From contig NC_047023.1 of assembly GCF_902652985.1 (NCBI RefSeq), forward strand, positions 40,610,001 to 40,674,000: 64,000 bases of DNA, read 5' to 3'. Within the stretch, counting starts at the first letter, position 1. Each line of letters opens with the position of its first letter. The notes under the pieces were generated by a model. The model worked only from the letters and a program-made list of their open reading frames with translations, did no database searches and was not told the origin of the DNA. The DNA is from Pecten maximus (lineage: Eukaryota). Position numbers and translations under genes: made by a program. This document shows positions 18,937-52,200 of this stretch, piece by piece.

Positions 18937-20794
18937 ACTGCATTTCTGTGTATTTTCACTTAGTGTAGTCCTGTAGGCGTAATTAGGTAAATTACTTTAT
19001 TTCTTGATAGCCAGTGTCTTTTAAAGGTGAAAGACATTAATAATGCATGATTTTATTAATCCGTACCCTTATTGACAACTTTACCCCATCACAAACGTAA
19101 ACCAGTCAATGTGGTACTGTAAACAACCATATATCATACAGGGGAGACAACTCTAGTGATCTTAGGTAAACCGTCAGATCAGAGCAGCGTCAACTAGGAC
19201 AACAGGAAACAGTGTCGTTGATACCTCGATCTAAACATCGCAAGTGATGTTTACCATCAATCTGACCAATAATTAATCCTACTTCAATATCGTGACATTT
19301 GAACGATAATAGAAAGTGCACGGATAAGTTTTAAGTGTTTACGCTTGTGTTTTTACTCCAGCATGTGTGAAATAGATAACACTGTGGTATATTTAGTAAT
19401 ATTTTGAAGTGTTTTTGGGAGTAGTATCCGCGTTAGTACAAGTTTGTGTTCTGTTGATTCGCATAAGATTATCAATCATGAGAGTAGCTCACTATATGTG
19501 AACTACGGTAACACTAAGTCGCCTGTCACGGTCGTTCCCACTTTGTTAGCTACGGTACGTTGATACCGCACTTCGTTTCCGTTTAGGAAGCTCGCGGACA
19601 GGATACTCCATGGTTAGGAATACTTTCTTTCGTGAAGTCTGCAGATAGTGTCTGTACGTCCTTTTTATTATTAAATATGTGACAAGTGTTGTTATTTATA
19701 ATATAAACGCTATTTATAACTGTGGCTGTGATATTGGGGATCAAGGATCATTAATTTGTCTGCTAACTAGGAAATGTTTCAAAACATTTTAATCAGTGGT
19801 ATCTTAAATAAAAACTAAAAACTCATTTATTCAAATTAGTTAAGTTATGCATTAGATTGAACACCCCACCCTGTCCTTGTAAAACACAAACATATTATAG
19901 CAAAAAAAACTGTATGCAAATTAGTAAGGATGACGGTACAGTTTGTCACTTGGAGCGCTTATAAGATCTCTATAACAAAATGCATTAAACGATATATCAA
20001 TAAGCCGAATTATTAAGATACTAGACTAACCGGAAGTAGTCTGTGGTATTAAAGAATTGCGTTAAGGAGACCAGAAAGAGATATATTTAAGCGTAGCGTG
20101 CTTAACTCATGTTACTTAGAAACCTATCCGTTGTTCTCAGACAACGACAAAAGAATAACGACGCGTTCTAACCCAATTTCGATGATGTAACGTCGAAAAT
20201 GTATATCTAAAATGGTGGGGGTGGGGGGTGGGGGGGGGGGGGGGGAGGAGGCAAGGATAAATTAAGAGTAACTTAAGTGAAGGAGTCCAGGTGTTCCGGG
20301 CGGATAAGTATTTCACTTTATCAAGAGCATCTGTCATGTATACCTGGTAAGATCAAGCCGAGGTAGTAAAACTAATAGATGTATGTCTCTGTCGAAGTGC
20401 TGAAATGTATTGCTTCCAAGATTATTGAAATTGTACTGAGTAAATAATGTTACATATGTACCACGTTACTTGTAGAGTAACTTGAACCAATCTTGAGACT
20501 ATCATAATTATATTCAGTCATCATCAGCGAAGAAATTAATTCAAATATCGAACAAATATAGCAATTATATATCGGGCTCTATGTAAAATTGATACCTGCA
20601 GTTTTGTTAAAATACGTTTCAAGTCCATATCAAATCGAAGTCGATACTTTATGTATTCTTCAGCGATATTTAATCAAACGAAAATCAAAAATAGCATCAC
20701 ATACTCGATGTTGATTTTTTTTTTTTTTTTTTAATTGGATCCTTTTCTCGAAAATTTACTGAAGCAGACTCTTTCTTTTCTAAATCTACACTTC

Positions 20795-22382
20795 CCATAG
20801 ATTCACCCACACGAAGTGTTTGTGGGGTAGATCCGCTCCCCATAGATTTACCCAGACAAAGTCTTTGTGAAGTAAATCCGCTCACCATAGATTTACCCAG
20901 ACAAAGTCTTTGTGGGGTAGATTCGCTCACCATAGATTTACCCGGACAAAGTCTTTGTGGGGTAGATCCACTCACCATAGATTTACCCAGACAAAGTCTT
21001 TGTGGGGTAGATTCGCTCCACATAGATTTACCCAGACGAAGTCTTTGTGGGGTAGACCCGCTCCACATAGATTTACCCAGACGAAGTCTTTGTGGGGTAG
21101 AGCCGCTCCACATAGATTTATCAAGACAAAGTCTTTGTGGGGTAGATCCGCTCCACATAGATTTACCCAGACAAAGTCTTTGTGGGGTAGATCCACTCAC
21201 CATAGATTTATCAAGACAAAGTCTTTGTGGGGTAGATCCGCTCCCCATAGATTTACCCAGACAAAGTCTTTGTGGGGTAGATCCGCTCCACATAGATTTA
21301 TCCAGACAAAGTATGTGTGGGGTAGATCCGCTCCACATAGATTTACCCAGACAAAGTCTGTGTGTGGTAGATCCTCTCACCATAGATTTACCCGGACAAA
21401 GTCTTTGTGTGGTAGATCCACTCACCATAGATTTACCCGGACAAAGTCTTTGTGTGGTAGATCCACTCACCATAGATTTACCCAGACAAAGTCTTTGTGG
21501 GGTAGATCCACTCACCATAGATTTACCCAGACAAAGTATTTGTGGGGTAGATCCACTCCACATAGATTTACCCACACGAAGTGTTTGTGGGGTAGATCCT
21601 CTCACCATAGATTTACCCACACGAAGTGTTTGTGGGGTAGATCCACTCCACATAGATTTACCCACACGAAGTGTTTGTGGGGTAGATCCGCTCCACATAG
21701 ATTTACCCAGACAAAGTCTTTGTGAGGTAGATCCGCTCCACATAGATTTACCCAGACAAAGTCTTTGTGGGGTAGATCCACTCACCATAGATTTACCCAG
21801 ACAAAGTCTTTGTGGGGTAGATCCTCTCACCATAGATTTACCCAGACAAAGTCTTTGTGAGGTAGATCCGCTCCACATAGATTTACCCAGACGAAGTGTT
21901 TGTGGGGTAGATCCTCTCACCATAGATTTACCCAGACAAAGTCTTTGTGGGGTAGATTCGCTCCACATAGAATTACCCAGACAAAGTATTTGTGGGGTAG
22001 ATCCGCTCCACATAGAATTACCCAGACGAAGTCTTTGTGGGGTAGACCCGCTCCACATAGATTTACCCAGACAAAGTCTTTGTGGGGTAGATTCGCTCCA
22101 CATAGATTTACCCAGACAAAGTATTTGTGGGGTAGATCCACTCACCATAGATTTACCCAGACAAAGTCTTTGTGGGGTAGATCCACTCACCATAGATTTA
22201 CCAAGACAAAGTCTTTGTGGGGTAGATCCACTCACCATAGATTTACCCAGACAAAGTCTTTGTGGGGTAGATCCTCTCACCATAGATTTACCCAGACAAA
22301 GTCTGTGTGGGGTAGATCCACTCACCATAGATTTACCCAGACAAAGTCTTTGTGGGGTAGATCCGCTCCACATTGATTTACC
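20795..22382. repeat. 45-bp palindromic minisatellite, ~35 units
   Basis: Unit catagatttacccagacaaagtctttgtggggtagatc(cgctcca/cactcac). It produces the 558-, 377- and 271-aa repetitive ORFs. Confidence 0.95.
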
Positions 22383-26854: not shown

Positions 26855-28328
26855 TATAAAACCATCTACATCTACTTATAGGTATGTAGAAACAGCTACT
26901 CCTTCTTTGAAAAGGGTTATGATATCATTTGTACTGCTTCTATAAATGGGATGTTCATATACTCATGCTTTTTGTTGTAAGTGTAAACATCTAAAGCAAT
27001 GTGTTTATGGAAATTTAATGTGTTCTAATTTCTTCCAAGTGTATCCTTCCATGCGAACAACCAAAAGTTAAAAATCAACATGTGTGTACATTTACTGATG
27101 CATGAGATCACACAACTTTTAATGGATGACAACATAATAAAAATGGAATATGTAATTGCTCAGAATTGAACAATTTACGTCGTGCGAAGATTATATCGAA
27201 AAAATATATCTATTTTTTTTTAATCATTTGACAATGAATTTCACACGAAAAACATACAGCACTGATTTTGTATTGACAGTAGAGCTCTATATTGTAGGTC
27301 TCTGTTAATGTGTTTGTTTGTTTGTTTGTTTGAGCTTTTTTTTAAAGCTGTACGCATGTTTTGAGGGTTTTTTTTAAAGCTGTACACATGTTCAAAATTA
27401 TTTATCGCCATTTATCATTTATGATGTTGTATCATGATAAACATAACGTTCATCCATGCAGACACCCTTTCATTATTGAAACATCAAAGTTAATGTTGAA
27501 TGATATAGCTGTATTGTTCATTTTAAATATAAATTATTATACATATTGAATACTCCAGGCTCTGTACTAGTGTTAATTACAACATTATGTATTCATTGGT
27601 TCAGTGACTTGGGAGATACAAAGGAAACAGCTGTTTTAATTTATAGTCTCACAATTTACCTTTCTTATATATATAATATCACAAAATGGACAGTCTAGAG
27701 CACAATATGACTTAAGTTGTCATCACATAAAGTTATAATTAATATAAATTGAGCTAATACAGGAATTTAAATTGCAAATCTGAAGGGTCATATTAATGAC
27801 ATTTACAAATAGATGCATACCCTTGCCATCACAATAGTCCAAACTTATTCTTGAAAGTCAAAAACAAATTCCCGACGACCAAGAGAAAGTGCCACCTTGT
27901 ATTAAGTGGTTGAGGATTTTTTGTTGCAATACTGTACATATGTATAAACTGTCGTTAAACTTTTTAACAAATTGACAATTTACTGATTATGCATTTCATG
28001 CATTGTTTATAATTTTATAATTTAAAACTACACCAATATTGATAGCATTCTTGTGAAAATATTCATGTTAACTCTTGCAAAATTATATTTTATATTTTCA
28101 GATGACGATGACCTAGCCTGCTGACTTGTCCAACAACAAGAAGCTTTGGATGAAGAACTTCAAATGTTGGTGGACTCGCCTTACTCATCTAGGTCAAATT
28201 GTAACACCGCAAGGTATGGAACATACTAAATGTTAGTTTATGACGCGACATCAGAATGGAACCCAGAAATGCTTTCACATCCTTAAAGACCCAGTGATGA
28301 AATTTGTGTTTGAAGTTTGACTACTGCT

Positions 28329-31304
28329 ATGGAAAGAAGAGATGGTGTTGAGTCAGTCAGCATGATCAACGCAATTAGTGACGGGTTCAACGTGCTCGCA
28401 GAGGATGAAGGGCGGGGCTTCCGAGGTGATGGACAGAACATCCTACATCAGGGGTCAGTCCAATTGCCCCCGGAGTACCAGAACACATGGAAGGACACTT
28501 CACAGATAAGCTATAATCACACCTCAAATGGAGGAATGCAATATGGCATGCATGCATGGAACAACGGATACGAGAAGAAAGATATAACCTCGCAAATGTT
28601 CAGAATGGACAATGGCAGTTCAGTATCTCAAAATGATATTCCACAAGCAGTGCTTAATATAAAGGAGGAGGATCTAGCTGTTCATGATTTCACTAAAATG
28701 AAGGATTATAATGAAACACCAGCAAAAGATCCACCTCAATATCAACAATGGCCAAGACAGTTTGACAATAATTATAATTTAATGAATCATACCAATGGTA
28801 ACTCAATGAAACCTTCTCTCCCCGATAGTCATTCCACAGCCAGTAGTACCTTTCCTGCACAGGAATCCATCAACTCGTCTCCCGAACAAAAACCTGTAGG
28901 ATCATATACTGCTCCCTATGTACAGATTAAACAAGAAAATTCCAGCAACCTCAATAATGTACATTGTAACCAAAATGGTGATCAGAAAGGACAACCCTGG
29001 CCAGGAAACGGAGTTGATACAAAACTTAATGTGTCATCTGGAGATTCTTACACTATGCAACGAGAAATTTATCTCAGGGATAGCTATTCTGTGATACCAC
29101 AAACATGTGCCTCCCCTGTAGCACTGAAGAGGGAACCATGTGACTTGAGTGGTAAAAATGACTGTTACCAACCTTCAGTGGCTAAGTATCCCCGTACGGA
29201 TGTTACATCATCAACTTTGGTTGAAAATGGAGAAACCTCGCCGCCACCAGGGTCTCAAAAAATGATTTCCCTTCAGCCTGTCAAACTAGAGCCAACCCTC
29301 CTTAGCATTCCTGGAGATCACAATATGAACATGAACCAACATTATCCTGGCCATGTTCCTTACAAGTATAATGACAAGCCAGGAAATTACAATGGAACAC
29401 GTGTAGATGGATCTTACGGACAGGGAATGGAAGAACCAGAAAGAAACTGTCTTGGGAAGTCAGTATCTGCATCTCTGATGTCCCTGCATGATTTTGCCTA
29501 TGCCTGGAACCCAGGAAATGAACCATACACAGCTATGGTAGGTTACAGGGCCACCATTAACCACCCCAGTCTTTCTGTAGAGCTCAGTAACACTGCAGCT
29601 ACCAACACCTATAGTGATAATACTCAGATAACGCCAAACATGGTCAGTAAGAACTGTGATACTACAATGAATTACTCGAAACACAGAGGAAATGGTCTGG
29701 ATGAATCCCTATGTAGTAATGAAAATTATGCAACCTTGTGCAATTTAGATCAAAGCACAAGCAGTTCTTTCCAAAGTAACGATGGATTTGATTCGAGTAG
29801 CTACAGCGTAGGAAACTCCGTTCAGAATGACGCAGACATGGATGACAGTTTTGGCAAACCATTTAGGAACGTGGAGTCGGAATACAATCAGGATGAAAAT
29901 GGAGAAGAAGATAACTGCCAGAAGCTTATGTGTCGTTGCGGAATATGCGGAGACACATTTGACACGAGCATCAGCCTCAGAGCTCATGTCCGTATGCACA
30001 CAGAAAGTATAGCACTCCAATGTGAAATTTGCAATAAGAAATTCAAAAACAAAGTTGAACTCAGAACACATTGTGAAAATCATGATGAGGAAAAGGTTTT
30101 GGCCTGTGATGTCTGCGACAAAACCTTCGAAAAGAAAAGATGCCTAAAGTCTCACATGCGTACACATTCAGGTGAGAAGAAGAAACTGCACAAATGCGAG
30201 GTTTGCGGCCGCCAGTACGGCACACTTCAGGGTTACCTTGTTCACAAGGACTCGCATGGCATTGACACACCTCACGAATGCTCAACATGCGGAAAGATAT
30301 TTGGACATGAAGATCTTCTGTCATTCCATATGAAAACTCACACAGACATTTTCACATTCATGTGTCACGTCTGTGACAAGAAGTTTGGAAACAACCGTGA
30401 ACTACAGAAACATCTTAGCAAACACACTGGTCTACTGCCCTTCCAGTGTAGTACATGTAATGATTCATTCTGCGATGATTATACCCTTCAAATGCACATT
30501 TCCGAACACACTGGAGAAAGTTTCCACATCTGTGAAGTTTGTGGGAAATCGTACAAAGATATATTAGCCATGAAGGAGCATCAGAAAAGTCACTCAGAGG
30601 AAAAACCATTTATCTGCGAGATTTGCTGTAAGGGGTTCAAATCAAAGACAAATTTACATGAACATTATCGAATTCATTCGGGGGAGAAGCCCTTTGAATG
30701 TCATGTCTGTGGGAAGCGGTTTCGTCAGAGCTCCATCCTGAGAAACCATGTTCGAATTCACACCGGGGAGACGCCCTGGGAGTGTAACGAGTGTGGAAAG
30801 AAGTTCAGCTTTAAGGGTAATTACACTCGTCACCTTTGGTCTCACACAGAGGAAAAGGAACGTACATGTCGCGTCTGTGGAAAGATATTCACTGACATGA
30901 TAGGATTGAAGCAACATCTGGAACGGCACACCCGTCAATCAAACCAGAAGCCAAAGTCCTTCAAGTGTAATATCTGCGACAATGAATTTGACCGAAGTCG
31001 TACCCTGCAGATGCACATGAAAGTGCATACAGGGGACTGTCCATTCACCTGTGACATCTGTGAGAAGACCTTCGTCTCCAAGATTGATCTCAACAAGCAT
31101 GTCAAACTGCATGATGACGAAAAGAGTTTTCGCTGTGATGTATGTGACAAGTCATATGTGGACAACGGCAGACTGCGACGTCATATGAAGATTCACATGG
31201 GCCTAAAACCATTCAAGTGTGACGTCTGCTCTTCGACCTTCACGGAGAAGTATCACCTGACAAAGCACCAGAAGACTCACCAGAAGGACACAGAGGACAA
31301 ATGA
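28329..31304 (+). CDS. C2H2 zinc-finger protein, 991 aa, 16 tandem fingers, single coding exon
   Basis: First in-frame ATG is at 28329 (the track ORF starts at a TTG, 28317). Low-complexity N-terminal ~540 aa, then 16 CxxC-x12-HxxxH fingers with TGEKP-like linkers (HSGEKPFEC, HTGETPWEC, HMGLKPFKC). Exon acceptor at 28101/28102. Confidence 0.95.
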   Translation: MERRDGVESVSMINAISDGFNVLAEDEGRGFRGDGQNILHQGSVQLPPEYQNTWKDTSQISYNHTSNGGMQYGMHAWNNGYEKKDITSQMFRMDNGSSVSQNDIPQAVLNIKEEDLAVHDFTKMKDYNETPAKDPPQYQQWPRQFDNNYNLMNHTNGNSMKPSLPDSHSTASSTFPAQESINSSPEQKPVGSYTAPYVQIKQENSSNLNNVHCNQNGDQKGQPWPGNGVDTKLNVSSGDSYTMQREIYLRDSYSVIPQTCASPVALKREPCDLSGKNDCYQPSVAKYPRTDVTSSTLVENGETSPPPGSQKMISLQPVKLEPTLLSIPGDHNMNMNQHYPGHVPYKYNDKPGNYNGTRVDGSYGQGMEEPERNCLGKSVSASLMSLHDFAYAWNPGNEPYTAMVGYRATINHPSLSVELSNTAATNTYSDNTQITPNMVSKNCDTTMNYSKHRGNGLDESLCSNENYATLCNLDQSTSSSFQSNDGFDSSSYSVGNSVQNDADMDDSFGKPFRNVESEYNQDENGEEDNCQKLMCRCGICGDTFDTSISLRAHVRMHTESIALQCEICNKKFKNKVELRTHCENHDEEKVLACDVCDKTFEKKRCLKSHMRTHSGEKKKLHKCEVCGRQYGTLQGYLVHKDSHGIDTPHECSTCGKIFGHEDLLSFHMKTHTDIFTFMCHVCDKKFGNNRELQKHLSKHTGLLPFQCSTCNDSFCDDYTLQMHISEHTGESFHICEVCGKSYKDILAMKEHQKSHSEEKPFICEICCKGFKSKTNLHEHYRIHSGEKPFECHVCGKRFRQSSILRNHVRIHTGETPWECNECGKKFSFKGNYTRHLWSHTEEKERTCRVCGKIFTDMIGLKQHLERHTRQSNQKPKSFKCNICDNEFDRSRTLQMHMKVHTGDCPFTCDICEKTFVSKIDLNKHVKLHDDEKSFRCDVCDKSYVDNGRLRRHMKIHMGLKPFKCDVCSSTFTEKYHLTKHQKTHQKDTEDK

Positions 31305-35500: not shown

Positions 35501-38500
35501 GTTTTCTTTTTTGTAGTTTGTTGATGTTATGAAATAGATGTTTGGGATGCATGGCTTTTGATCTGTGGAATTCATTGGACTTCAATGGTTTGTCTTGAGT
35601 GTGTGGGGTGTTTTTTGCAATGTTACAAACAAACAAAATGCAATCATAGAAATGACTGATCAATGTAATTTTTTATTAGTACATCGAGTTGTTTGACAGA
35701 AAATGAATGCAACTCTCATAGATCTTAAATAAGGTAATTCGTGAAATGTATTTAAAAGTACGATTTAAAATAATAGTTAGCCTTCGATACTGGTACATGT
35801 TTGTCGGGGAAAAAATTGTGGTAGAATATACTAAATGTGATTAATACATGATTGAATATGTATCTTATCTCTTGAGGGTCCATTTTCCATAAAAAGTTCT
35901 TTAATTTTCCTTAGAGATAATAATACAATGATGGCTATCAATTCTAATAGATTGCAGATTGATTGAAGCATACATCTGTGACTAAAGACACTCCCATTAC
36001 CTGTTTACACCTATGCCTTGCACAGCATGTGCTAATTTAATACTCATTATATCAAAGGTTTGAAAACCTGTAGTTGTTTGTTTACATACATATTCAGTAC
36101 TGTTTGAATTTCCATTTAAGTTTGCATATTTTCAATATTCATTAAGAGTTTGAATAATCAATGTTTATTCATTACATTGATGTATGAATATACATCCATG
36201 TTTAAGTATTCATTGAAGTTTGAAGATTCATTGATGTTTGATATGAATTGTTTCCCATATAAATCATGTATTTATTTTTTCATCTGTGTGTTAAAATTTA
36301 TATCCACTTACACTGTTATCATATATAGTAGTTCTTGTTATTGGTGGAAAATTAGTCATATTTTATTTTATAATAATCCTAATTCATACAAGGTGTTTGG
36401 CCGTGTTTTTATTCTGCCTGGGGTTTTGTGCATGTGAGAGTTTATTTATGATGTAGAGTTTTTACTATATGTCAATTTCATGTATTTTTTTCATGGTTTT
36501 TTTTTTACTTCCATTTTATGTGTTACATGCATCACTGTGATGCACTCGATGTTTAGAGTTTTATTGTTAATCCATTAAGTTACATACATAGGCAGAAAAT
36601 TTCACAGTCTCATTCATATAAATGACCTGATGGTGTAAACAAAAACAAACAGGATCCATTGGTGTTTGATTATAATTTTGTTCTCATAAGTATAATAGAA
36701 TTTATCCAAAAACCTGCTCAATGTTTCTGCTTCACAGTAAAAAAAAAAAAAAATAGAATAAAAAAATTTAAAAACAAAAATACAAACCAAAAAAAAACCT
36801 ACAAAAAATGTCAGAAACTTTGACGTAGATATTTTGAAAAGGAATGATTGTTTAAATTACATCATGTGAAATTGTTTGGTCCAGGTTTTTTCCGTACGAC
36901 TTATTTAAATATATGAGGACATTCTCTTACAAAAATGTAAAAAAAAAAAACACCACCAACTTCTACACCAGCTATTTTTGCTCATTAAACTTGAACATTT
37001 TAGTTTATTTGATAATTTTGTATTTATTTAACATCAATATTAATTTCAGGTTCCTTAGTGCAGTATATTAAATGATAAAAGTATAGAACATATACATTGA
37101 ATTAAAGATATACAGGATCATTCTTTAAAATACCTGGAATTGTTTTTAACTTTGCTATGAATTGAAATTAGGGCATCTGTTTTCAAGTAATGCTGCCAAC
37201 ATTGTGTGATTTACTAAACAATTCACATCAATGAGACAGATTATTTAATCATCAGAAGAGAACAAATTACTTGCTATTTTGATATCTCAGATTTGAAGTA
37301 AAAGATTATTGTGATACATAGGTCAATATGTTAAAGCTGGGTGATAGTATTGTATGACAGAAGAGGTTGTCTGAATTTCCTTTTCTGTTCATTTCACATG
37401 GTTTTAAGTTGAACTTGTTCCTAGAAAGGTCTTTGACAGCAGATGAGGTTTGTCACATGTTCTTCTCAACCTCCATTCCTGTTTCAGGCAGCTAAAATTG
37501 ATTACCATTGATTAATTCATTTAATGAATTGATTTTCTCAAATTATTCAATTAATTTTTCCATATAGATGAAGTATCATTCTTCAATTGATTGATTTTTC
37601 TGTAATTTACTAAATATGATTTATGTTGATAATTTAATTTTTTTTAAACAATTCATTGAATGAATTAATTGGTTTATTTTAGATTGATGAAGTACTGTTA
37701 GATTTGTTTTACAATAATTTCATTTCATCTCCATTTTGATTTCCATTGTAATTTAATGAATGTAATTAAGTAGGCTTGGATGCTGGATAGTAGATTGGGT
37801 GTGGGTTTATTGTGTAATTAGTCCTGAATCATTTATATCATTTTGTACCTAAAGATTTGTAGAGAAGGAAATCATTCATATCTTGAAAAGATCAATAATA
37901 GGCAAAATTTCTTCAGATGTTTGTTTTTTTTAAAAGGGGAAAAAAAAAGAAAAAGAAAATCATGCTTTTCAATTGAAAGATTTGGTTACTACACTTGTGA
38001 AACTAGATATGTTCTTGTGATATTTGAGAGTTCATTTTAGATCAAACAACACACTAATGTAGCTATATACTGTATAATTGACATGGAAGCAATACATTAT
38101 TTACTATAACCATATTTGTGTACAAACCTAAGTAATCGGTCATTAGTTGTTCCAAGGAAGGTTACTGGTCCAACTGTGTGTAGTAGGGAGGTTTATCAGA
38201 CAAGGTTCATCAGAAAGATAGGTGGTTGCTGGTATTCTGATGTTTTCATGTTAAAAAGAGTTACCTCCACTGCTGCAAACAGTTTAGCTTTAAATTATTG
38301 GGGAATGTGAATGATTCAAAGTATTTGGTTACTGCTTATAAAGGGATTAATACTGTGATTAAAAACAGCTCTCACAGTCAAAAAAGAACTCAATATCTGT
38401 TCTTAAACACGAAATGGAAAATTTTATTTTTACTACAAGATTGATCAAGTATTGAACAGATTTACTATCAGATCATTAAAAGTTCACTTGATTAAAGAAA

Positions 38501-39184
38501 TTTTTGGAACTCTAGAAAAATATCTTGTTGCATGTTGTAGATAGGATCAGAAATATGAATTCGAGGTAAAATATTCTAGTCATATATTGACTGTGTTAAC
38601 AAGAAAACATTTCAGTTTTTAAACTCCAGATATAATTTTATATTGCTTGTTGGTTTTCTACATTTTAATATTATAGAAAGATTTTTTTATTGTATTATAG
38701 ACCTATCTAGAAAAGATGCATCACTGTTTCTTCATATACATGTGTACATAGTGTTTCATTGAATTAACCCAGTTTCCATAGAGTTGATATTTCCTATAAT
38801 GATTTATATAATGTTGATTTGATAGCGGAAAGTTAACCCAATGCTCATAGTATTAATTGATCCTGTTACCTGTATAAAAACCAATTATGTACAGTTTGGA
38901 GAGCCCTCCTTGTTACCTACGTTTTTTCTATGGGGGATGTCTTGTGTACATGTGTACGTTATTCCACTGAAATGAGATGTACATTTATTGATAAAACTGT
39001 TTTGAGTGAGTTGAATGCAACATATACAAAACCATTTTATGTATACTATTAAAGTTACATATAGTGATCAGTACTGTGTTGCCTTTGTTTGTACTGCTTT
39101 TGTTTCTATGTCTGCCCTTAACATGTTTTGCAACTTCTAGTTACCAGTAATTTTCAGTGTTAAATATATAATGTATATACAGTC

Positions 39185-39267
39185 CAATCTAATTAAAATC
39201 AGATGTACATTTGCACTACGCTACTCTCATACGTAGTGCAAATGTACATCTGATTTTAATTAGATTG
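39185..39267. mobile_element. 83-bp perfect hairpin MITE, 9-bp TSD (Mutator-like)
   Basis: 36-bp perfect arms caatctaattaaaatcagatgtacatttgcactacg with an 11-nt loop; TSD tatacagtc at 39176-39184 and 39268-39276. Confidence 0.9.
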
Positions 39268-39271
39268 TATA

Positions 39272-39404
39272 CAGTCAGACTTCATTTTCTCAAACTCTGA
39301 TAACTCAAAGACCACGTTGAATTCAGTTCCAATAGCAAAATATTCTCGGTTACCTCAAATACCTGTAATAAAGTTTTTTTCATGATCCTAATGAGGTTTG
39401 ACAG
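39272..39404. mobile_element. Old Tc1/pogo-like MITE (host of the hairpin MITE)
   Basis: TA-cagtcagacttc ... gaggtttgacag-TA. Confidence 0.4.
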
Positions 39405-40189
39405 TACATATGAAATGAACTTTAGTGATTTATAAGCTACTATACTTTTTCACTACATACTATAACTCCTACATATATACAGTATCCTTTCTTCTCTAAA
39501 CGTATATTCGACAGAGAGTGAAGTGTACATAGGAGCGGACAGAAACACTTTAAATTAGTTTCTCCTTTGAAGACCACGGAAAGATATCCTGATCTCATTG
39601 GGAAATATTCTGCTTTCTTGGGATTTTGATGTGTGACTCATTGGGAAATCATGCTATCTTTTTGTGATATGTAAAGTGGTGAATGCTTGCTGATATGGCA
39701 GCCTAGAGTTGCATTGTAAGTGTCTTTGATGACGGAGAAGATGATTACACTCCCGTAATATCTTGTTTTGAAATCTTAAATGGACTGTGTAGCGTTAATC
39801 TGATAGGGTAAAAATGATCACATGGCAAGGTGTAGCTGCGATAACGTAGCTCTGGACGACGAACGGACAATTTCTGACAGATGGTCGTCGTCAGAGAGCA
39901 GAGTAGGCAGGTTATGAATATTCGTTCTAGACAAGGTGTGTAATGTCATAACTAAACATTTGTTACAACTTCGAAAGAAACAGAAGGCTTCAGAGTCGTT
40001 ATGATGCTTTTCATAGAGATAAAACTTAAGAGAATTTCAATTTTTGCATTTGTGATTTGGCAAAAAAAAGATTGCACGTTCATTCCAACTACAGGATGTA
40101 CACGGTTGGATTTATGTTTGTTACTTCATTACCATGGAAATCCATTCTTGTGAATTTTGGAGTTTGTTTAAAACTTGTCATATTGTCGA

Positions 40190-41110
40190 ATTGTAGCAGG
40201 CTAGACACTACCTGAAACGGCGTTGGTGTTTCTGCTGATGGACTGTCGAGTCATCAGCTGGGTCCATCCGTCTCCAGACGTTTCATCCCCTAACCCGGAA
40301 CATCCTCGTGACGGCAGCCAGATAGCATAAGAGGATCAATCTTCTACCTAGCTACGACAATGTAGCTCTGGACGATTTTTGGTAATTGGTCGCCATTATG
40401 TAGACAGGGCATGGGCATCCGTTCTATCTTCTACCCACTATGGTCAGGTTTTCAGTTCGGCTGCCATGGCCATAATGTTGACTGCTCATCCTCCTCCAAC
40501 ATGACGCTACTTGGAAACCTTGTGCTCCTACTGCGACTGGGAGGTTCCACCTCTGCCATCCTATTTGTCTGCAATCACTCACCTGATCGTCATACTTTGA
40601 ATATCTGCGTTAAAATGGGCTTCCTGGCATCGAATCTTCAATGGAACTATCAGCTCTATCACCACCAGTTTCTTCTTGCTATCAGATATTTGTAGGATGT
40701 CTGGTCATTGGGCAGTCTCTAGACTATTGGTGGGGGTATAAGTTTCCTCCCTAGGTGAACTCGCTACACTCTGGCTATGCTCAGTGCAGTCGCTGCGCTG
40801 TATGGTGATTCCTATTGTTTGCTTCACTTCTGACCGAAGTTGCTGAAGCGTGGCTGGTCAGTGAGTGTCTGTGGTCCTTAATCCGCTCTAGATCTGTCTC
40901 GTGTATGGGCAAGTGCTTTTAGAACCTGGTCGTGGGCGTGTGTTGGAAATGGCTGGCTTCTGGCAAAGTAGGCATATATTACGTTCTATTCTTCATTACT
41001 CGGCCATATTTAAAGCACTTGCGGATGTCTTTTTTTTCAACCTAAGACATGACATATGAGCCAGGTAAAAGTTAATATCTTATGTGTCAAACTACTGGGC
41101 ATGCCCACTG
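40190..41110 (-). mobile_element. Degenerate RLE-type non-LTR retrotransposon 3' part (Hero/NeSL-like)
   Basis: Minus-strand peptides in the expected order: CLLCQKP (~40970), HDQVLKALAH (~40934-40905), HLGRKL, PDILQISDSKKKLVVIELIVP (40704-40642; PD..E nuclease motif), WNLPVAVGAQGF (~40549-40514), MAAE. Many stops and frameshifts. Clade assigned from recalled motif similarity. Confidence 0.75.
40245..40305 (-). ncRNA. Candidate permuted hammerhead-ribozyme-like motif in the retroelement 3' UTR
   Basis: GGAUG-UU-CCGGGUU-AGGGGAU-GAAA-CGUCU-(11 nt)-GACCCAG-CUGAUGA-CUCGAC. Stems I and III can pair; stem II is weak. Confidence 0.4.
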
Positions 41111-41651
41111 GAATTAATTTAGTAGTAAATAGGATCAAAATATACGAAGACTGCTCAAAAACTTTTCAGCAGATTTTAGCGGTGAGTTGGATATCGCTGA
41201 GAAAAATGTTGAAATTGGCGATTTCACTTTCAAAATCTTCTTCATATCCAAGTAGCTCTTGTGGTTTCAAATTAAATATGATGGCAACCACAAACGAGAA
41301 ACAAAACGTGCATAATTTCTCTACTCCAGAAAAGCAGTACAAGAAGTGTTTGACCTGCACTGCCCTCTGTCTCTGTGGATAGGTAAAGTCCATACGGCTA
41401 ATAGGTTAACTTAAAACCACATTTTTTGATGTACTGGTGATGAAATGTTGACGTTGCCTGGCATGGGGCGCAAACTTGGTTTGATTTCAACGTTGTTTAT
41501 TATTTTAGGGTGTTGACCATTAAATTCATATTTAAAGATGCTATTTGCATCTGTTGCTATCGTACAATTCATTGGTATTGCTGGAAGGTAAATTCCTGCT
41601 GGTGGACTGTAAGTCTCCAAAGGGTTGACTTTAACCTCTGGAGGAATGTAT

Positions 41652-43140
41652 GTCACCGAGGTTAACCGTTAAACCTATGGTGGGCTGTACGTCCCCGAGG
41701 TTAACTGTTACCCAAATGGTGGGCTGTACGTCCCCGAGGTTAACTGTTACCCAAATGGTGGACTGTACGTCCCCGAGGTTAACTGTTACCAAAATGGTGG
41801 ACTGTGCGTCCCCGAGGTTAACTGTTACCCTACTGGTGGACTGTACGTCCCCGAGGTTAACTGTTACCTAAAATGGTGGACTGTACGTCCCCGAGGTTAA
41901 CCGTTACCCTATAAGTGGACTGTACGTCCCCGAGGTTAACCGTTACCCTACAGGTGGACTGTACGTCCCCGAGGTTAACCGTTACCCTACAGGTTGACTG
42001 TACGTCCCCGAGGTTAACCGTTACCCTACAGGTGGACTGTACGTCCCCGAGGTTAACCGTTACCCTACTGGTGGACTGTACGTCCCCGAGGTTAACCGTT
42101 ACCCTACATGTGGACTGTACGTCCCCGGGGTTAACCGTTACCCTATAAGTGGACTGTACGTCCCCGAGGTTAACCGTTACCCTATAAGGTGGACTGTCCG
42201 TCCCCGAGGTTAACCGTTACCCTACAGGTTGACTGTACGTCCCCAAGGTTAACCGTTACCCTACTGCTGGCCTGTAATTCCCCGAGGTTTACCGTTACCC
42301 TACTGGTGGACTGTACGTCCCCGAGGTTAACCGTTACCCTATAGGTGGACTGTACGTCCCCGAGGTTAACCGTTACCCTATAGGTGGACTGTACGTCCCC
42401 GAGGTTAACCGTTACCCTACAGGTGGACTGTACGTCCCCGAGGTTAACCGTTACCCTACAGGTTGACTGTACGTCCCCGAGGTTAACCGCTACCCTACTG
42501 CTGACCTGTAATTCCCCGAGGTTAACCGTAACCCTACTGCTGGCCTGTTATTCCCCGAGGTTTATCGTTACCCTGCATGTGGACTGCAAGTCCCCGAGGT
42601 TAACCGTTACCCAACTGGTGGACTGTAAGTCCCCGAAGTTTGACGTTACCCTACTAGTGGAATGTAGGTCCCCAAGGTAAACCGTTACCCTATAGGTGGA
42701 CTGTACGTCCCCGAGGTTAACCGTTACCCTACAGGTGGAATGTACGTCCCCGATGTTAACCGTTACCCTACGGGTGGACTGTACGTCCCCGAGGTTAACC
42801 GTTACCCAACTGGTGGACTGTACGTCCCCGAGGTTAACCGTTACCCTATAAGTGGACTGTACGTCCCCGCTGTTAACCGTTACCCTACTGCTGGACTGTA
42901 CGTCCCCGAGGTTAACCGTTACCCAACTGGTGGACTGTACGTCCCCGATGTTAACCGTTACCCTACAGGTGGACTGTACGTCCCCGGGGTTAACCGTTAC
43001 CCTACAGGTGGACTGTACGTCCCCGATGTTAACCGTTACCCTACAGGTGGACTGTACGTCCCCGGGGTTAACCGTTACCCAACTGGTGGACTGTAAGTCC
43101 CCGAAGTTTGACGTTACCCTGCTGGTGGAATGTAGGTCCT
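41652..43140. repeat. 39-bp minisatellite, ~38 units
   Basis: Unit ggtggactgtacgtccccgaggttaaccgttaccctaca; a diagnostic variant block recurs at 468 bp (12 units). Confidence 0.95.
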
Positions 43141-43719
43141 CGATGTTCGACTTTACCGTATTGGTGGACTTTGAGTCCACTTGCTTGCTGCGTTTTAATC
43201 TTGCTGTGTATTGGCAAAGGTTCAGAATAGACACGTGTACTTCGTGTTCTGTATATGTTTAGAAGTAATTACAACAGTGTGGAGAATGGAAAATTTCAAA
43301 TTTTCGAGACACAAAGAATACAATCACATGATATATAAACCGTACTAGACAATACAATAAGAGACAGTAAGAGTAATATTATAGGTAGTAGTTGGAATGA
43401 AGCGAAGCGTCGGTCGAGGGAAAGATACTGGATGGTATACCAACCTACCAACCCGTTCGTTACCCTTGAGGTATGAACGAACGTTAAAGGCTTTGTTCTC
43501 CACGCGACCCCATGTTGGTATCTGACAAATCACTTAATTATTCAATTCGTTTAAATTTTCTCCTGAACTATTGGTTTTATGACATTGCTGCTATTCGATA
43601 CTCAAATTTGGTCGCCTCCCGTCGTCTTATTAAAGCAATAAGAATAAAACCTAATGATAAACCATTGGTGGCTTATGAAATAAGAACCAGTTAAGAAAAA
43701 AAAAAAATAGATTACATAG

Positions 43720-46020
43720 AATAGCCAAACAAACCAATAAAGTAAATGACTTGTATCAATTTAGAATGTTCCGAAATACACTGACTTTATTAGAAAACGC
43801 TAGAAAAGCTAGCGATACACATCTTATGAAACTTAAAAACTCTCTTGCAGATAAGACTTCAGTACCTATCTAGCTAGTAAGTGGTGGACTATTGCTTAGT
43901 CCTAATGTGGTCTTTCCAATAAAAATTAACTTCTCATCGTCTTCAAGTAAAGCAGAAGCTATTAATAATGTATTGATACGAACAATGTTCAGAATTCTAA
44001 CATGGAGCCATCTCCCCTTAGTCATATCAAACTTGGTGCAATTATAATATTAGATCAAGATATAATTGATCAAGTCTAGTTAATTAATGATAGTAAACCT
44101 CCTGTAAATAATTTTTTTAAATCTGCTATCGTCTATAATTTTACCTCTTAAAATTCTCTTTAACACAACCATTACTTCTGGTACTAATGCTACAACATGG
44201 AAGTCTTCTAATGTCAAAGCTCTATATAAAGGTACATGTAACGGTGCTATTGGTGATCTAGGTAATCATACATCAATTGGCATTACATCCATTTGAAGTA
44301 AAATTATTCAACCTAGATACTCTATACAGTCAATCAATTAATATCAATATATAATGTAACTATGGATAATATAGATAAAGGTAAGGATATAAGATTATTA
44401 TTTTGTGATATAAGATTATCATTTTGTGATATTAGTAAAGGTAAGGATATAAGATTAGCGTTTTGTGATACAGATGTATAAGATAAGTGTATTGTGATAT
44501 AAGTTAATAATATATAAGATTAGTGTTTTGTGATATAAATAAAGGTAAGAATATAAGATTGGTGTATTGTGATATAAGATTATTGTTTTGTGATATAAGA
44601 TTTGTGTTTTGTGATATAAGATTGGTGTTTTGTGATATAAGATTTGTGTTTTGTGATATAAGATTAGTGTTTTGTGATTTTAGATTAGTGTTTTGTGATA
44701 CATGTATAAGATTAGTGTTTTGTGATATAAGATTAGTGTTTTGTTATATAAATAAAGTCGTTGACAGAGTCTGGTATCATGGTCTTAAGATAAGTTTTTA
44801 AAAAAATACCGCATGTGTTGTAATTTGTACAAATGGTTTGAAAATTAGTTTACTGATAGAAAACAAATAGTTATAGTTGATGGTTATAATCTACATTTAA
44901 ACACATAAGTGCTGGATTTCTGGTACTCGGACCTTTTATAGTCTTACTTTTTATCAATGACATACATGTAATTAAGGAAATTAATACAAATATAAAAGTA
45001 TTTGCTGATGATACTTATCTCTATGTTAGAGTTGGTGATGATATTGCTTCTACTGTAAGTAAAAAATAGAGTTCACCCTCCCTTGTTTGTTGAAGATAAA
45101 GTAATTCAAGAAAAAAATATTTCATAAACATAAGGATGTATTTAACTCAAAAGCCACATGGGAGGATCATATTAATGATATTTACAATAAAGTATAAAAC
45201 GACAATCTTTTTATGATAAAGCACAAAGTTGAATGGACAACTCTTGTAATTAAACTGTTCATTTGTCAGAATTCAGATTTCATTTTGGACAACTGCACTA
45301 TTGCTGTATCTAAATCATTAGAACCTGTACAGGTTGATGCAATGTAAATTATTACTGGGTTTAGAAGTGGTATTTCACATTATAAACTGGACAAAGACAC
45401 GGATAAGGTAAAAAGGCGTCATAAGCAAAACCTAATTTTAATGCACAAAATTATGAATCACATGACCTGATTATTTGTTTGATATCATTGAATCATTAAT
45501 GAATTATTAGCAGAATATTCATAATTTGCGTCACCATAGAACATTTTTTCAATATACCAAGGACAAGAACCAGTATCTACAATACAAGTTTCTTTTTAAG
45601 TGCCATGCAGGAATGGAATAATCTTGATCATTCGCTGGGCAGTAGGTCTAAATTCCTTCAAAAAGAATCTTAATCAAACAATAGCTAATTCTAAGATACT
45701 GTTTCTGCTACTTTTAAAAACTATGCCCCTCGTAAAATATTATAAATATTAAATATTATCTTGTGCCAATTAAGAAATAATGCAAGTGACTTGAACTGTC
45801 ATGAATAAATAGATCATATTATCCCTACTCCAGTTGGGGCTGTGGTTCACTTATTGAAAATAATGGTCTTTACTTTGTTCTTGTCCTAATTTCTGTAGTT
45901 CTAGGAATATATTAATGAAATTCATGACCGTATCGGTTATTTTAATTCAATCCTGTTACCTTCAGGTGATAATACACTATCGAATAATCGTAATAAATTT
46001 ATCCTGACTAATTTGATTTT
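43720..46020 (+). mobile_element. Decayed CR1-group LINE ORF2 (reverse transcriptase, RT) relic
   Basis: Fragments WKSSNVKALYKG, IDKGKDIRL.FCDISK, VDRVWYHGL, FTDRKQIVIVDG, LLFINDI and IKVFADD (FADD at 45001-45012). Many frameshifts. Confidence 0.8.
44372..44755. repeat. 21-bp minisatellite expanded inside the LINE RT motif
   Basis: Unit gatataagattagtgttttgt, which reads DIRLVFC. Confidence 0.9.
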
Positions 46021-46222
46021 TTGACCAGCTCTAAAACCGAAATTTCTTCAAATTGAAAAAAATGACGCCAATGAATGGCATCAACCATCGGTTCATTGAG
46101 TTTAAATCCAGTATGACAGTCAGGTATGAACTTTTTACCAGGATAGCGACATTCTTAGTCATAACTACACGTGAGTATACAAGGTGTCCAATTTGCGTGG
46201 ACTATTCAAGGTTGGGCATTCG

Positions 46223-49200
46223 TTAATGGACCTCGTCAAATCTGGCACTATCCGCCCTGTAACTTTCCACGTGACGGTTCACGTGCACAATCTCCCATTT
46301 TTTCATCCATGGTCCTGGAACTGTCGTGTCGAATTCTTCCTCTTCCTCCTAGAAACCAGTCAATATACTGAATGATAATCGTTCAAATCCTCAAAAGAAA
46401 CAAAAACTATACTGATTCAGAAGAATTCAACAAAAACTATACTGATTCAGAAGAATTCAACAAAAACTATACTGATTCAGAAGAATTCAACAAAAACTAT
46501 ACTGATTCAGAAGAATTCAACAAAAACTATAACAGACTTGTTTCAGAATCAAACAAGAGTAATTTAACTCTTTATCGGCATAATAAAACAGGACTGTTTA
46601 TTTTGATATCTCGTTTTACTAATACATGTACAATTAAAGCGTTATTAGCGGTAATAATGGAAATCATCAAACAGCGTACATACAATACAGTTAAAAAGTT
46701 AAGAAATCTTCCAATAGACCGCCATATTCTTATTCTAACGACCAACCTTGCAGTTTACCCACCTCCACTGCCGCACTTCGAAATAGTTTGTGGCGGATGG
46801 TACTGTCGAATTTCTCCCACGATATCTGAAAGTTGGGATCTTTTGCCGTCCTCATGAGGACGCCGTCCTTCTTGCCGTAAAACCCGTTTGGTAAACTGGG
46901 TTTCTGCCAGCGCAGGTCAAAACTCCAGCGGATGTCGTTTGACAAATTCATCAGGCTACAAAGTCAGGTGTTGTAGGTATCATTACTATAGATCTAAATG
47001 GGATCTGTGTTTACGATGTGAAGTTTGAGAACTTGTTTAGTATCTCCAGAACAACTTGCCAAACTTAAATTCACACACAATTAATTGACTTGTAACAGGT
47101 ACTTTATGGTTCCGTACGTGCGTGTGTAGGTTATTGCATATAACTTACACAGTACACAGCATTTAAAAAAAAATGTGCCTAAAATTGAAGTACATGTATT
47201 GATTTTATCACACGAAGATACATTGTTATTTTGTTTACTGTGTCACAAACTTATTAAGCTAGTAACGCCAACAATATACAAAATGTACTTACATTGTAAG
47301 ATATGAGTATATTAAAATAATAGTCTTTAACTTTTGTTAAGGTTCTTGTTAATAATTAAAAGTACTTAAAACCGTTTTATTCTTTATCTTTGATACATAT
47401 ATTCTGTAAAGGTACACTTTTTTGCAATAGTCTTGTTTTACATTGTGTGTGTGTGTGTGTGTTTTCAATGGTAAATGTTTTTTTGTATGTCAATTTAATT
47501 ATCATTTGTTATAGTTCAATACTGTACTAAAATATAAGTTTGTCTATGCGCGGTTATGATATGGTTCAACCACAGTAGTTATCAGCGTTAGCAATGTCTT
47601 GGATTTTATTCGAGTATGGCAATATTTTTAGACCTACCTGCGATGAGGAATGATATTATTGAATAACAGCATCCCTCCATAAGGAACCTCGCAAGTGACA
47701 AAATCGGTGGCAGGGTTTGTACCTATAAATGGAAACTAAATTAATCACAGCGTGGTTTTGGTATATCTCTGGATCTGCAGCAAAGAGAGAATACTCTGTC
47801 CCAACTGTGAAAAAGGCGAGGTAAAGAGACGACGTTCTGTCATCACAATGAAGAAGGCGGGGTAAAGAGGCGACGTTCTGTCATCACAATGAAGAAGGCG
47901 GGGTAAAGAGGCGATGTTCTGTCACCACATTGAAGAAGGCGGGGTAAAGAGGCGATGTTCTGTCACCACATTGAAGAAGGCGGGGTAAAGAGGCGATGTT
48001 CTGTCACCACATTGAAGAAGGCGGGGTAAAGAGGCGATGTTCTGTCACCACAATGAAGAAGGCGGGGTAAAGAGGCGACGTTCTGTCATCACAGTGAAGA
48101 AGGCGGGGTAGAGAGACGATGTTCTGTCACCACAGTGAAAAAGGCGGGGTAAAGAGACGATGTTCTGTCACCACATTGAAGGCGGGGTAAAGAGGCGATG
48201 TTCTGTCACCACATTGAAGAAGGCGGGGTAAAGAGGCGATGTTCTGTCCCCACAGTGAAGAAGGCGGGGTAAAGAGGCGATGTTCTGTCACCACATTGAA
48301 GAAGGCGGGGTAAAGAGGCGATGTTCTGTCACCACAATGAAGAAGGCGGGGTAAAGAGGCGACGTTCTGTCATCACAGTGAAGAAGGCGGGGTAGAGAGA
48401 CGATGTTCTGTCACCACAGTGAAGAAGGCGGGGTAAAGAGACGATGTTCTGTCACCACATTGAAGAAGGCGGGGTAAAGAGGCGATGTTCTGTCACCACA
48501 TTGAAGAAGGCGGGGTAAAGAGGCGACGTTCTGTCATCACAGTGAAGAAGGCGGGGTAAAGAGGCGATGTTCTGTCACCACATTGAAGAAGGCGGGGTAA
48601 AGAGGCGATGTTCTGTCACCACAGTGAAGAAGGCGGGGTAGAGAGACGATGTTCTGTCACCACAGTGAAAAAGGCGGGGTAAAGAGACGATGTTCTGTCA
48701 CCACATTGAAGAAGGCGGGGTAAAGAGGCGATGTTCTGTCACCACATTGAAGAAGGCGGGGTAAAGAGACGATGTTCTGTCACCACATTGAAGAAGGCGG
48801 GGTAAAGAGGCGATGTTCTGTCCCCACATTGAAGAAGGCGGGGTAAAGAGGCGATGTTCTGTCACCACATTGAAGAAGGCGGGGTAAAGAGGCGATGTTC
48901 TGTCCCCACAGTGAAGAAGGCGGGGTAAAGAGGCGATGTTCTGTCACCACATTGAAGAAGGCGGGGTAAAGAGGCGATGTTCTGTCACCACAATGAAGAA
49001 GGCGGGGTAAAGAGGCGACGTTCTGTCATCACAGTGAAGAAGGCGGGTTAGAGAGACGATGTTCTGTCACCACAGTGAAAAAGGCGGGGTAAAGAGACGA
49101 TGTTCTGTCACCACATTGAAGAAGGCGGGGTAAAGAGGCGATGTTCTGTCACCACATTGAAGAAGGCGGGGTAAAGAGGCGATGTTCTGTCCCCACAGTG

Positions 49201-52200
49201 AAGAAGGCGGGGTAAAGAGGCGATGTTCTGTCACCACATTGAAGAAGGCGGGGTAAAGAGGCGATGTTCTGTCACCACAATGAAGAAGGCGGGGTAAAGA
49301 GGCGACGTTCTGTCATCACAGTGAAGAAGGCGGGGTAGAGAGACGATGTTCTGTCACCACAGTGAAAAAGGCGGGGTAAAGAGACGATGTTCTGTCACCA
49401 CATTGAAGAAGGCGGGGTAAAGAGGCGATGTTCTGTCACCACATTGAAGAAGGCGGGGTAAAGAGGCGACGTTCTGTCATCACAGTGAAGAAGGCGGGGT
49501 AAAGAGGCGATGTTCTGTCACCACATTGAAGAAGGCGGGGTAAAGAGGCGATGTTCTGTCACCACAGTGAAGAAGGCGGGGTAGAGAGACGATGTTCTGT
49601 CACCACAGTGAAAAAGGCGGGGTAAAGAGACGATGTTCTGTCACCACATTGAAGAAGGCGGGGTAAAGAGGCGATGTTCTGTCACCACATTGAAGAAGGC
49701 GGGGTAAAGAGACGATGTTCTGTCACCACATTGAAGAAGGCGGGGTAAAGAGGCGATGTTCTGTCCCCACATTGAAGAAGGCGGGGTAAAGAGGCGATGT
49801 TCTGTCACCACATTGAAGAAGGCGGGGTAAAGAGGCGATGTTCTGTCCCCACAGTGAAGAAGGCGGGGTAAAGAGGCGATGTTCTGTCACCACATTGAAG
49901 AAGGCGGGGTAAAGAGGCGATGTTCTGTCACCACAATGAAGAAGGCGGGGTAAAGAGGCGACGTTCTGTCATCACAGTGAAGAAGGCGGGTTAGAGAGAC
50001 GATGTTCTGTCACCACAGTGAAAAAGGCGGGGTAAAGAGACGATGTTCTGTCACCACATTGAAGAAGGCAGGGTAAAGAGGCGATGTTCTGTCACCACAT
50101 TGAAGAAGGCGGGGTAAAGAGGCGATGTTCTGTTACCACAGTGAAAAAGGCGGGGTAAAGAGACGATGTTCTGTCACCACATTGAAGAAGGCGGGGTAAA
50201 GAGGCGATGTTCTGTCACCACATTGAAGAAGGCGGGATAAAGAGACGATGTTCTGTCACCACATTGAAGAAGGCGGGGTAAAGAGGCGATGTCCTGTCCC
50301 CACATTGAAGAAGGCGGGGTAAAGAGGCGATGTTCTGTCACCACATTGAAGAAGGCGGGGTAAAGAGGCGATGTTCTGTCCCCACAGTGAAGAAGGCGGG
50401 GTAAAGAGGCGATGTTCTGTCACCACATTGAAGAAGGCGGGGTAAAGAGGCGATGTTCTGTCACCACATTGAAGAAGGCGGGGTAAAGAGGCGATGTTCT
50501 GTCACCACATTGAAGAAGGTGGGGTAAAGAGACGATGTTCTGTCACCACATTGAAGAAGGCGGGGTAAAGAGGCGATGTTCTGTCCCCACAGTGAAGAAG
50601 GCGGGGTAAAGAGACGATGTTCTGTCACCACATTGAAGAAGGCGGGGTAAAGAGGCGATGTTCTGTCACCACATTGAAGAAGGCGGGGTAAGGAGACGAT
50701 GTTTTGTCACCACATTGAAGAAGGCGGGGTAAAGAGGCGATGTTCTGTCCCCACAGTGAAGAAGGCGGGGTAAAGAGACGATGTTCTGTCACCACATTGA
50801 AGAAGGCGGGGTAAAGAGGCGATGTTCTGTCACCACAATGAAGAAGGCGGGGTAAAGAGACGATGTTCTGTCACCACATTGAAGAAGGCGGGGTAAAGAG
50901 GCGATGTTCTGTCCCCACAGTGAAGAAGGCGGGTAAAGAGACGATGTTCTGTCCCCACAGTGAAGAAGGCGGGGTAAAGAGACGATGTTCTGTCACCACA
51001 TTGAAGAAGGCGGGGTAGAGAGGCAATCTTCAGTCCCCACAGTGAAGAAGGTTGGTTAAGAGGTATAACAGAAAATGCTTACAAACAAGGCGGCGGACTT
51101 AATGTTTGAACTTTAGGGAGTATGAACCTTCTGATGACAAGAGTGTATGACAGAACAAGACAGATGTCAACAATTTCCATTCTCTATACTCATGGGGCAA
51201 CGTTCACCTTCGCTCTCTGTACCCCTGGAATATGCAAAATCGAAGACAAGTCGACCAACTGTCCGATTGGTTACTGGGGTGGGGTCTGACCTGTTTCTTT
51301 TGAAGTCTACAGAAGAACAAAAAGCGCAAATTCCAAAGTCAGTCAATTTAACATTTGGCTAACCTGATATTCGTTGGATTAAAAGAGTCTTTTTGTTTTA
51401 TCCTCAAGTATCATTCCATGTGAGCATACAGCAAAAGTAAGCATAACCTCTTGGATTTACAGGCTATGAAGACAGTGACTGGCCATCTGAGGGACAAGGT
51501 GTCAATACTCATTAAGAGACCGAGTTATCTACATCCTCATTCAACTACAGAATATTCATACCGGCCTTTTATATTCCTGATGATGATTGTTTGGGCAATG
51601 TAACCTGATATTCGGTCTGTATAAGCTACGAGCTTCTAGACCTAGGACTGAAAATAGTTATCGCGTGTGATGATGTTGACCTCAACAGGCACATTAGCCT
51701 AAGTGTTGTCCTGCTCAGAGACACATGAAACAACCAATCAGTGTTGTCCTGCTCAGAGACACTTGAAACAACCAATCAGCAGCTACTGCAGCATAAACTG
51801 ATCTAGATGCCAAATAAAGCAGAGACTAACGCTAACACAAGAAACATGGAGCCAGTTCTACATGCAATCATCTGGGAGAAGTTGATGTCATCCATCTCAG
51901 GTTTGACGTCGGCAAGAGCAGGGAATACGGTCAATTACTAGTAGTTATTTACTAAAATTTAGGAACCCTGGGACCACGATAACTTCTGATATTCCTGGTC
52001 AACGCCAGTACCTTAAACCCATGCTCAATCTCAGAGGTATACAACAATATATTTATCGGTCAAAAGGTATCCAAAAGAATCCTTCAAATACAAAAACATA
52101 AAGCGGATAATAAAGAGATGCATTATTGTTTATGTAGATCATCGTTATGCATAAAAACAATAATGTACATTTACTTTTGATATTAAAGGTTGTCGTGTTC

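Follow-up and report, generated by a model that had tools for sequence, protein, structure and literature searches.

A hammerhead-like fold with a split core in the 3' tails of Hero-like retrotransposons, and its candidate role in copying from circular RNA

The core blocks of a hammerhead ribozyme, set in an order that no circular permutation gives, were noticed in the genome of Pecten maximus at the end of a decayed retrotransposon, which raises the question of whether these blocks form a ribozyme and what such a ribozyme would do for the element carrying it. The window, by which the whole 64,000-nt stretch analysed is meant, comprises positions 40,610,001-40,674,000 of the forward strand of NC_047023.1 (GCF_902652985.1), and all coordinates below count within it. 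A preliminary description had read a NUH triplet, GAAA and CUGAUGA in this scrambled order on the minus strand, with a GUU triplet predicting a cut between 40299 and 40298; both the letters and the coordinates were verified. When a covariance model was built from 37 relatives, with the window's own family and its nearest family omitted, 40235-40377 was scored at 56.6 bits (E 7.6e-15) and the second-best match in the 64-kb window at 19 bits. No ribozyme match to Rfam was obtained within 36000-48000 of the window, and none in seven loci including full-length elements. The preliminary description had placed the 3' half of the motif properly and left out a conserved 5' half (about 40306-40360). 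The features of the copy in the window are the following.

40481-40756, minus strand: broken C-terminal restriction-like endonuclease (RLE) of a 5'-truncated Hero-like non-LTR retrotransposon, with frameshifts and stops
40347-40361, minus strand: place of closing helix Y's 5' arm; pairing imperfect, several pairs broken in the model alignment
40321-40346, minus strand: hairpin P0 with a near-palindromic loop (UUGAUC in this copy)
40315-40320, minus strand: position of the upstream stem II strand, which supplies G10.1; decayed, 3/5 pairs at best
40308-40314, minus strand: 5' arm of helix X, connecting the distal ends of stems II and I; counterpart of the type-SGC 'I' helix
40306-40307, minus strand: GA, non-bulged strand of the predicted kink-turn
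40299-40305, minus strand: stem III 5' arm and GUU triplet; predicted cut 40299/40298
40294-40298, minus strand: stem I arm 3' of the predicted cut
40285-40289, minus strand: stem II strand preceding GAAA
40276-40284, minus strand: GAAA core block and stem III 3' arm (GAAAC at 40284-40280)
40271-40275, minus strand: 3-nt bulge and GA of the predicted kink-turn
40264-40270, minus strand: helix X 3' arm
40251-40262, minus strand: second arm of stem I and CUGAUGA core (40257-40251); the stem I mismatch fits CpG decay
40241-40250, minus strand: helix Y 3' arm, immediately 3' of A9
40234-40258, minus strand: core-masking hairpin, strong in this copy, unconserved across families
40209-40233, minus strand: element 3' tail without poly(A); homology to L002 stops at 40209, so that the end lies about 90 nt past the predicted cut

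The assignment of the host to a Hero-like element was upheld by an endonuclease remnant upstream of the motif, found by tblastn with the intact relative P0029 (40704-40615 at 60% and 40609-40481 at 37%, E 1e-10); 40756-40487 is 73% identical in DNA to the sister copy L002. An intact relative, L133, has a single frame of 1147 residues with RVT_1, zf-RVT, a CCHC knuckle and a PD-(D/E)xK-like endonuclease, and its best PDB matches were R2 proteins. Named protein relatives came from bivalves, lancelet and teleost fish, the nearest being from bivalves. Since Hero has been reported as the sole R2-group clade in bivalves, the elements were labelled 'Hero-like', an assignment that follows the nearest named proteins and that report. 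A single ORF with reverse transcriptase, zinc knuckle and RLE, and mostly non-specific insertion, are shared with the Hero clade (PMC4640811, PMC10294476). A fragment of another reverse transcriptase lies at 58250-58435 on the plus strand (29% to P0029, E 0.001), adjoining open frames at 58468-59963. The window further contains a 996-residue open frame with many C2H2 zinc fingers (28314-31304, plus strand) and long minisatellites at 20794-22382 (45-bp units), 41595-43170 (39 bp), 47808-51051 (41 bp) and 16021-16887 (20 bp), some of which yield long open frames. At 39184-39268 two arms of about 37 bp form an almost perfect inverted repeat, probably a small foldback or MITE, whose matches to microRNA families all stayed under the curated scores.

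Relatives within the same genome were sought by DNA, pattern and protein searches, and the copy counts given here are lower bounds. About ten Pecten maximus families were found to have the same core blocks and differing stems. A metagenome search with an endonuclease alignment left 312 confirmed stretches, of which the best 79 loci were used; these were picked by endonuclease protein alone. The covariance model matched 76 of the 79, and 48 of the 51 outside its training set. Of the three unmatched loci one stops 16 nt past the match, one is decayed and one is divergent. No relative was found in viral contigs, and prokaryotic genomes gave a single distant match, L222, which the covariance model did not match. 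On this 1429-bp contig of a Planctomycetota MAG, GAAAC and then CUGAUGA, the order of the Hero-like tails, come after a distantly related RLE element (31% identity); the contig is possibly eukaryotic contamination or a more distant form.

The structure tests were carried out on a sequence-only alignment of 47 family representatives, for which exact core words had been part of the selection filter. Of 64 clusters, 18 were excluded (six decayed copies of included families, 11 matches that had no endonuclease domain in front of them, and L222), and a further family member, L101, was added to give the 47. From 5' to 3', the elements of the fold are Ya, P0, a G-initial stem II strand, Xa, GA, a stem III arm and UH with the cut; then a stem I arm, a short linker, a stem II strand, GAAA, the other stem III arm, three bases and GA; and finally Xb, the second stem I arm, CUGANGA and Yb. 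Over the whole structure 88.9% of cells were paired, against 61.6% after shuffling and 32-41% in slid registers, and compensatory cells numbered 496 against 149; 0/500 shuffles came as high. All six helices are well paired and covary (Y 81%, P0 90%, II 92%, X 88%, III 96%, I 96%), which confirms the covariation of stems I and III that the preliminary description had called for. Its family consensus check likewise returned conserved CUGANGA, GAAA and NUH, core words that were in part selected for. These shuffle tests are inflated by related families; the slid controls and the varied pair types argue for real covariation. In an alignment-free comparison, pairing within the own family exceeded pairing across families for stem I (4.68/2.16), upstream stem II (4.34/2.83), X (5.28/4.02) and Y (7.09/4.89), with 0/10000 permutations as high in each case. 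RNAalifold recovered Y, P0 and stem I unaided. To us it is almost certain that the conserved fold is real.

The position of stem II accounts for the unusual topology. The preliminary description had regarded this stem as poor, which did not stand: the strand upstream of the cut-site block is its partner across the family, with 91.8% paired and a covariation of 0.72. The classic partner after CUGANGA was rejected with 45.5% or 53.2% paired; its register offset by one base lies slightly above shuffles (53% against 46%), yet was exceeded by a slid register (59%). Helix X is 87.6% paired with compensatory change in four of its five pairs. The bases 3' of CUGANGA pair instead with the 5' arm of Y, which puts two helices, Y and P0, between A9 and G10.1. 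The blocks run in the order S, G, C with crossing stems, a pseudoknotted fold as had been expected, and match none of the circular-permutation types I-III (CGS, GSC, SCG, three-way junction). Two other arrangements were dropped. The hairpin arm of the window copy had been tried as an 'I' helix, but its conserved partner sits upstream; a dimeric reading of the Penelope type, with a cut at the GUC after GAAAC, was judged by eye to leave families A and B without a stem I partner, and that GUC is unconserved.

A kink-turn signature accompanies helix X. Its elements, a canonical helix, a 3-nt bulge, tandem G-A and A-G pairs and a second helix, were identified as a sequence signature, which in its strict form with the 3-nt bulge is present in 38/47 families (0-11 with other bulge lengths) and in 42/47 if another base is permitted at 2n. 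Such a predicted kink-turn would bend helix X back to stems I and II, a geometry for which we see no other explanation. The P0 loop of intact families reads UGAUCA, UGGCCA or GACGUC, and a 6-nt palindrome occurs in the P0 loop window of 26/47 families against 9.9 after shuffling (maximum 20), so a kissing loop is possible. Kink-turns and palindromic loops are typical protein and RNA contact modules.

The fold carries all core positions of a hammerhead. G16.2 is kept in 46/47 families, position 17 is never G and G10.1 is paired to C or U in 41/47 (core words being partly selected for), and N7 varies freely in the 47 families, as in hammerheads. No activity is known to us for a hammerhead core into which two helices are inserted between A9 and G10.1, a point against cleavage. 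From the conservation of the core and by analogy with tested type-SGC ribozymes, we infer that intact families quite probably self-cleave after NUH. An improbable alternative is that the fold derives from a hammerhead and is catalytic rarely or not at all, acting as a platform for the element protein or an L7Ae-family protein, or as a dimerisation element. It would suit the contact modules just described and the lack of any sign of cutting in genomic copies and contigs (where contig ends do not count as evidence), and it leaves the retention of the positions for chemistry, selected in part as they are, without a reason.

Hammerheads that are not circular permutations, which the preliminary description had mentioned, are indeed published (PMC10085705). 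The type-SGC and type-CSG ribozymes (HRIMA-1 and variants) share with the present fold the order of cut site, GAAA and CUGANGA, two pseudoknots, a short linker between stems I and II (1-8 nt in Hero-like elements, typically 3 in type SGC) and a helix bridging the distal ends of stems I and II near distal stem III (PMC10085705). Type-SGC hammerheads cleave at 0.007-0.19 per minute (Eckert 2023, PMC10085705). In type SGC the stem II strand comes right after CUGANGA, whereas in Hero-like elements it is at the 5' end with Y and P0 intervening, and both strands of the bridging helix meet stem III via a kink-turn signature only in the latter (PMC10085705). The Hero-like fold is found in animal retrotransposons; the SGC and CSG types come from metatranscriptomes or metagenomes, with none reported in genomes of known organisms (PMC10085705). 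By this analogy the Hero-like fold would work like type SGC without being a member of it. In the open papers searched, no hammerhead with helices between A9 and G10.1 was found, and Hero was described there with neither a ribozyme nor a tandem layout nor a circular RNA. The hammerhead topology of Hero-like elements is apparently undescribed.

The preliminary description had allowed that the window copy may be inactive, and its state agrees with this. The core and the kink-turn signature are intact, as is stem III (40305-40300 with 40281-40276, 6/6 pairs); stem I (40298-40294 with 40262-40258) has 4/5 pairs with one C-A mismatch, the upstream stem II is decayed, Y is imperfect and, in the minimum-energy fold, CUGAUGA is buried in the masking hairpin. 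Where arm Ya should be, a 27-nt stretch (40375-40349) resembles 39859-39833, about 500 bp off, at 89% (E 0.013), and also two sites in L019; the arm was perhaps overwritten by a fragment of another repeat, templated or inserted. With its stem II partner lost, the window copy is probably dead. Just three or four further copies of its own family were found, all decayed, and the ancestral tail of this family is therefore uncertain.

Two hammerhead-like satellites were noted besides. At 54764-55018 on the minus strand, a 47-bp tandem repeat of 5.4 copies has CUGAUGA, a short hairpin and GACGU where type I has GAAACGU; it scored 19 bits with the covariance model and looks like a decayed satellite of the retrozyme or Penelope type. 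L032 (G000:C14, about 27,394,800-27,396,900) consists of tandem units of about 45 bp, each with CUGAUGA, a 6-bp stem II and GAAACGUC; with more than 30 exact pattern matches and a stem I that is not clear, it is a minimal-hammerhead-like satellite.

The masking hairpin had been the basis for proposing a switchable ribozyme that forms the element 3' end and is turned off by the downstream hairpin. In the window copy this hairpin is strong (-12.3 kcal/mol, z -4.0) and present in the minimum-energy fold of the 141-nt region, and weaker forms fold in L002 and L015, decayed copies of the window's family. It is unconserved across families, where the same bases pair with the upstream arm instead: own-family pairing was 4.77 of 10 against 4.80 across families, with 6808/10000 permutations as high, and the minimum-energy state of an intact relative consists of Y, P0, X and III (z -3.2). 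Given the weaker forms in L002 and L015, the hairpin may still be a family-specific switch. The proposed role in 3'-end formation was examined in a census of 107 distinct copies from nine families, 90 of which span the cut. Ends falling within 5 nt of the cut number 0/107, and the one start in that interval belongs to an internally deleted copy; most copies terminate 85-105 or about 150 nt past the cut. Cut-site 'scars' or excess changes were not seen among the 107. As an account of template 3' ends the switchable model is largely refuted, and overall we hold it to be very improbable. In families of the same genome (for example L066, L091, L003 and window 40213-40209) the last letters at the 3' end are AG-GUA or U-GUAAGU, which resembles a 5' splice site, and a small terminal hairpin usually precedes them; metagenome families are less regular.

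What the ribozyme would do instead is suggested by the other end of the element. A pattern search for 5' starts in the same genome gave 15 matches, one of them an unrelated minisatellite; all 14 remaining starts (two possibly one locus assembled twice) are directly preceded by a 3' tail piece of their own family, from 23 nt to more than 1 kb long, which carries the GAAA-CUGANGA core in 11/14. On metagenome contigs 12/12 starts follow their own tail, to which collapsed repeats may contribute. In 8/8 pairs the 5' repeat has diverged privately to broadly the same extent as the body (for example 2.4/1.9%, 2.2/1.9% and 0.0/0.1%), which fits joint insertion. It was considered whether the head-to-tail copies are later insertions targeted before existing elements and so uninformative about the form of the RNA. 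The 5' repeats do appear slightly younger than the adjacent 3' ends in 4/4 cases, but repeat and body ages track each other, no bare 5' start was seen among the 14 though most copies are dispersed, and L244 forms a single block within a minisatellite unit, where no older tag precedes it; we give this explanation hardly any weight. L241 and L244 are both tail-plus-unit composites within minisatellite arrays, and the flanks of L244 continue the minisatellite repeat unit with no evident target duplication.

Head-to-tail copies running through the cut would be produced if, in intact elements, the ribozyme cleaved the element RNA once per unit, the cleaved unit were rejoined into a circle, and the reverse transcriptase entered this circle internally, about 90 nt past the cut, and copied it more than once round. 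In two runs of one sample (X1 and X2, RNA status guessed) a young family gave a self-closing contig of 3724 nt, a unit of 3694 plus 30, although linear transcripts that are tandem or overlap would give such a contig too. In a further study, one run (RNA status guessed) bridges the tail-to-start junction and the cut site. Taken as a whole, the reading that a decayed 3' UTR copy of the conserved hammerhead fold lies in the window, and that intact elements go through such cleavage, circle formation, internal entry and copying beyond one round, is to us about as probable as not. Against a simple circle, the 5' repeat in 4/4 testable elements matches some other copy more closely than the 3' end of its own element, and changes are not in excess at the cut. 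In L241, moreover, the repeat departs from the element's own 3' end at three sites, all of them shared with other copies, which is left unexplained by one monomeric circle.

These L241 differences would be met more readily by an active ribozyme with a linear template, in which transcripts of partial-tandem or tandem loci serve as template, either through internal priming or through template jumps from one RNA molecule to a second, with kissing loops perhaps keeping the two together. In this account the upstream ribozyme trims read-through RNA (compare the R2 5' HDV-like ribozyme) and the downstream copy often stays uncut. The contigs running unbroken across the cut agree with this, as do the excess of P0-loop palindromes and the main template of the Penelope element PAc, which is uncut RNA, internally primed, with hammerhead cleavage dispensable for insertion in vitro (PMC11167929). 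Among 43 families with a placeable stop codon, 18 have it 35-60 nt ahead of the cut, within the Y or P0 5' arm, so that translation could unfold the downstream copy only. A linear template is harder to reconcile with 5' repeats that never start at the cut and often pass through it, with the persistence of up to 1 kb of a repeat that should shorten each generation, and with the unbranched unit-length loop in X2. We rate it as unlikely, though a serious contender.

Copying by way of a circle, or of multimeric RNA, has parallels in other elements. For Penelope elements, cleavage, ligation and copying of a circle for more than one unit have been proposed (PMC4209133). Penelope-like elements and animal retrozymes resemble the Hero-like elements in the hammerhead of the terminal repeat, the partial-tandem copies, the lack of poly(A), and a circular template (proposed) or internal priming (shown there); they have minimal type I, often dimeric hammerheads, GIY-YIG and a telomerase-like reverse transcriptase (PMC4209133; PMC11167929; bioRxiv 10.64898/2026.07.22.740005). 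Hero-like elements differ in their R2-like reverse transcriptase with restriction-like endonuclease and in their complete stem III. With R2 they share a self-cleaving RNA (predicted in Hero-like elements) serving an RLE non-LTR element, but the R2 ribozyme is HDV-like, at the 5' end and in an rDNA-specific element, and that of the dispersed Hero-like elements is of another class and in the 3' UTR (PMC13580325, PMC7650587). A more far-reaching proposal, which we regard as tentative and more apt to be wrong than right, is that Hero comprises LINE-type elements replicating via ribozyme-made circular RNA, with a seventh hammerhead topology, opened inside the core, bent by a kink-turn and controlled either by an L7Ae-family protein or by dimerisation through kissing loops, and that an R2-like enzyme primes internally on the circle and copies it for more than one round.

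The fold would be a non-circularly permuted hammerhead in animal genomes, with an interruption of the core that is barred by the published block rule. Eckert 2023 assumed CUGAnGA to be contiguous with its stem II strand (PMC10085705), and pattern searches of RefSeq would therefore have missed it. The fold occurs in dozens of natural variants, through which it can be tested directly, and the kink-turn would be a handle for protein-controlled ribozyme switches. For the elements themselves, the head-to-tail layout hints at internal priming by an R2-related element on circular or multimeric RNA, a mode hitherto tied to Penelope elements and retrozymes and relevant to RLE-based genome insertion tools.
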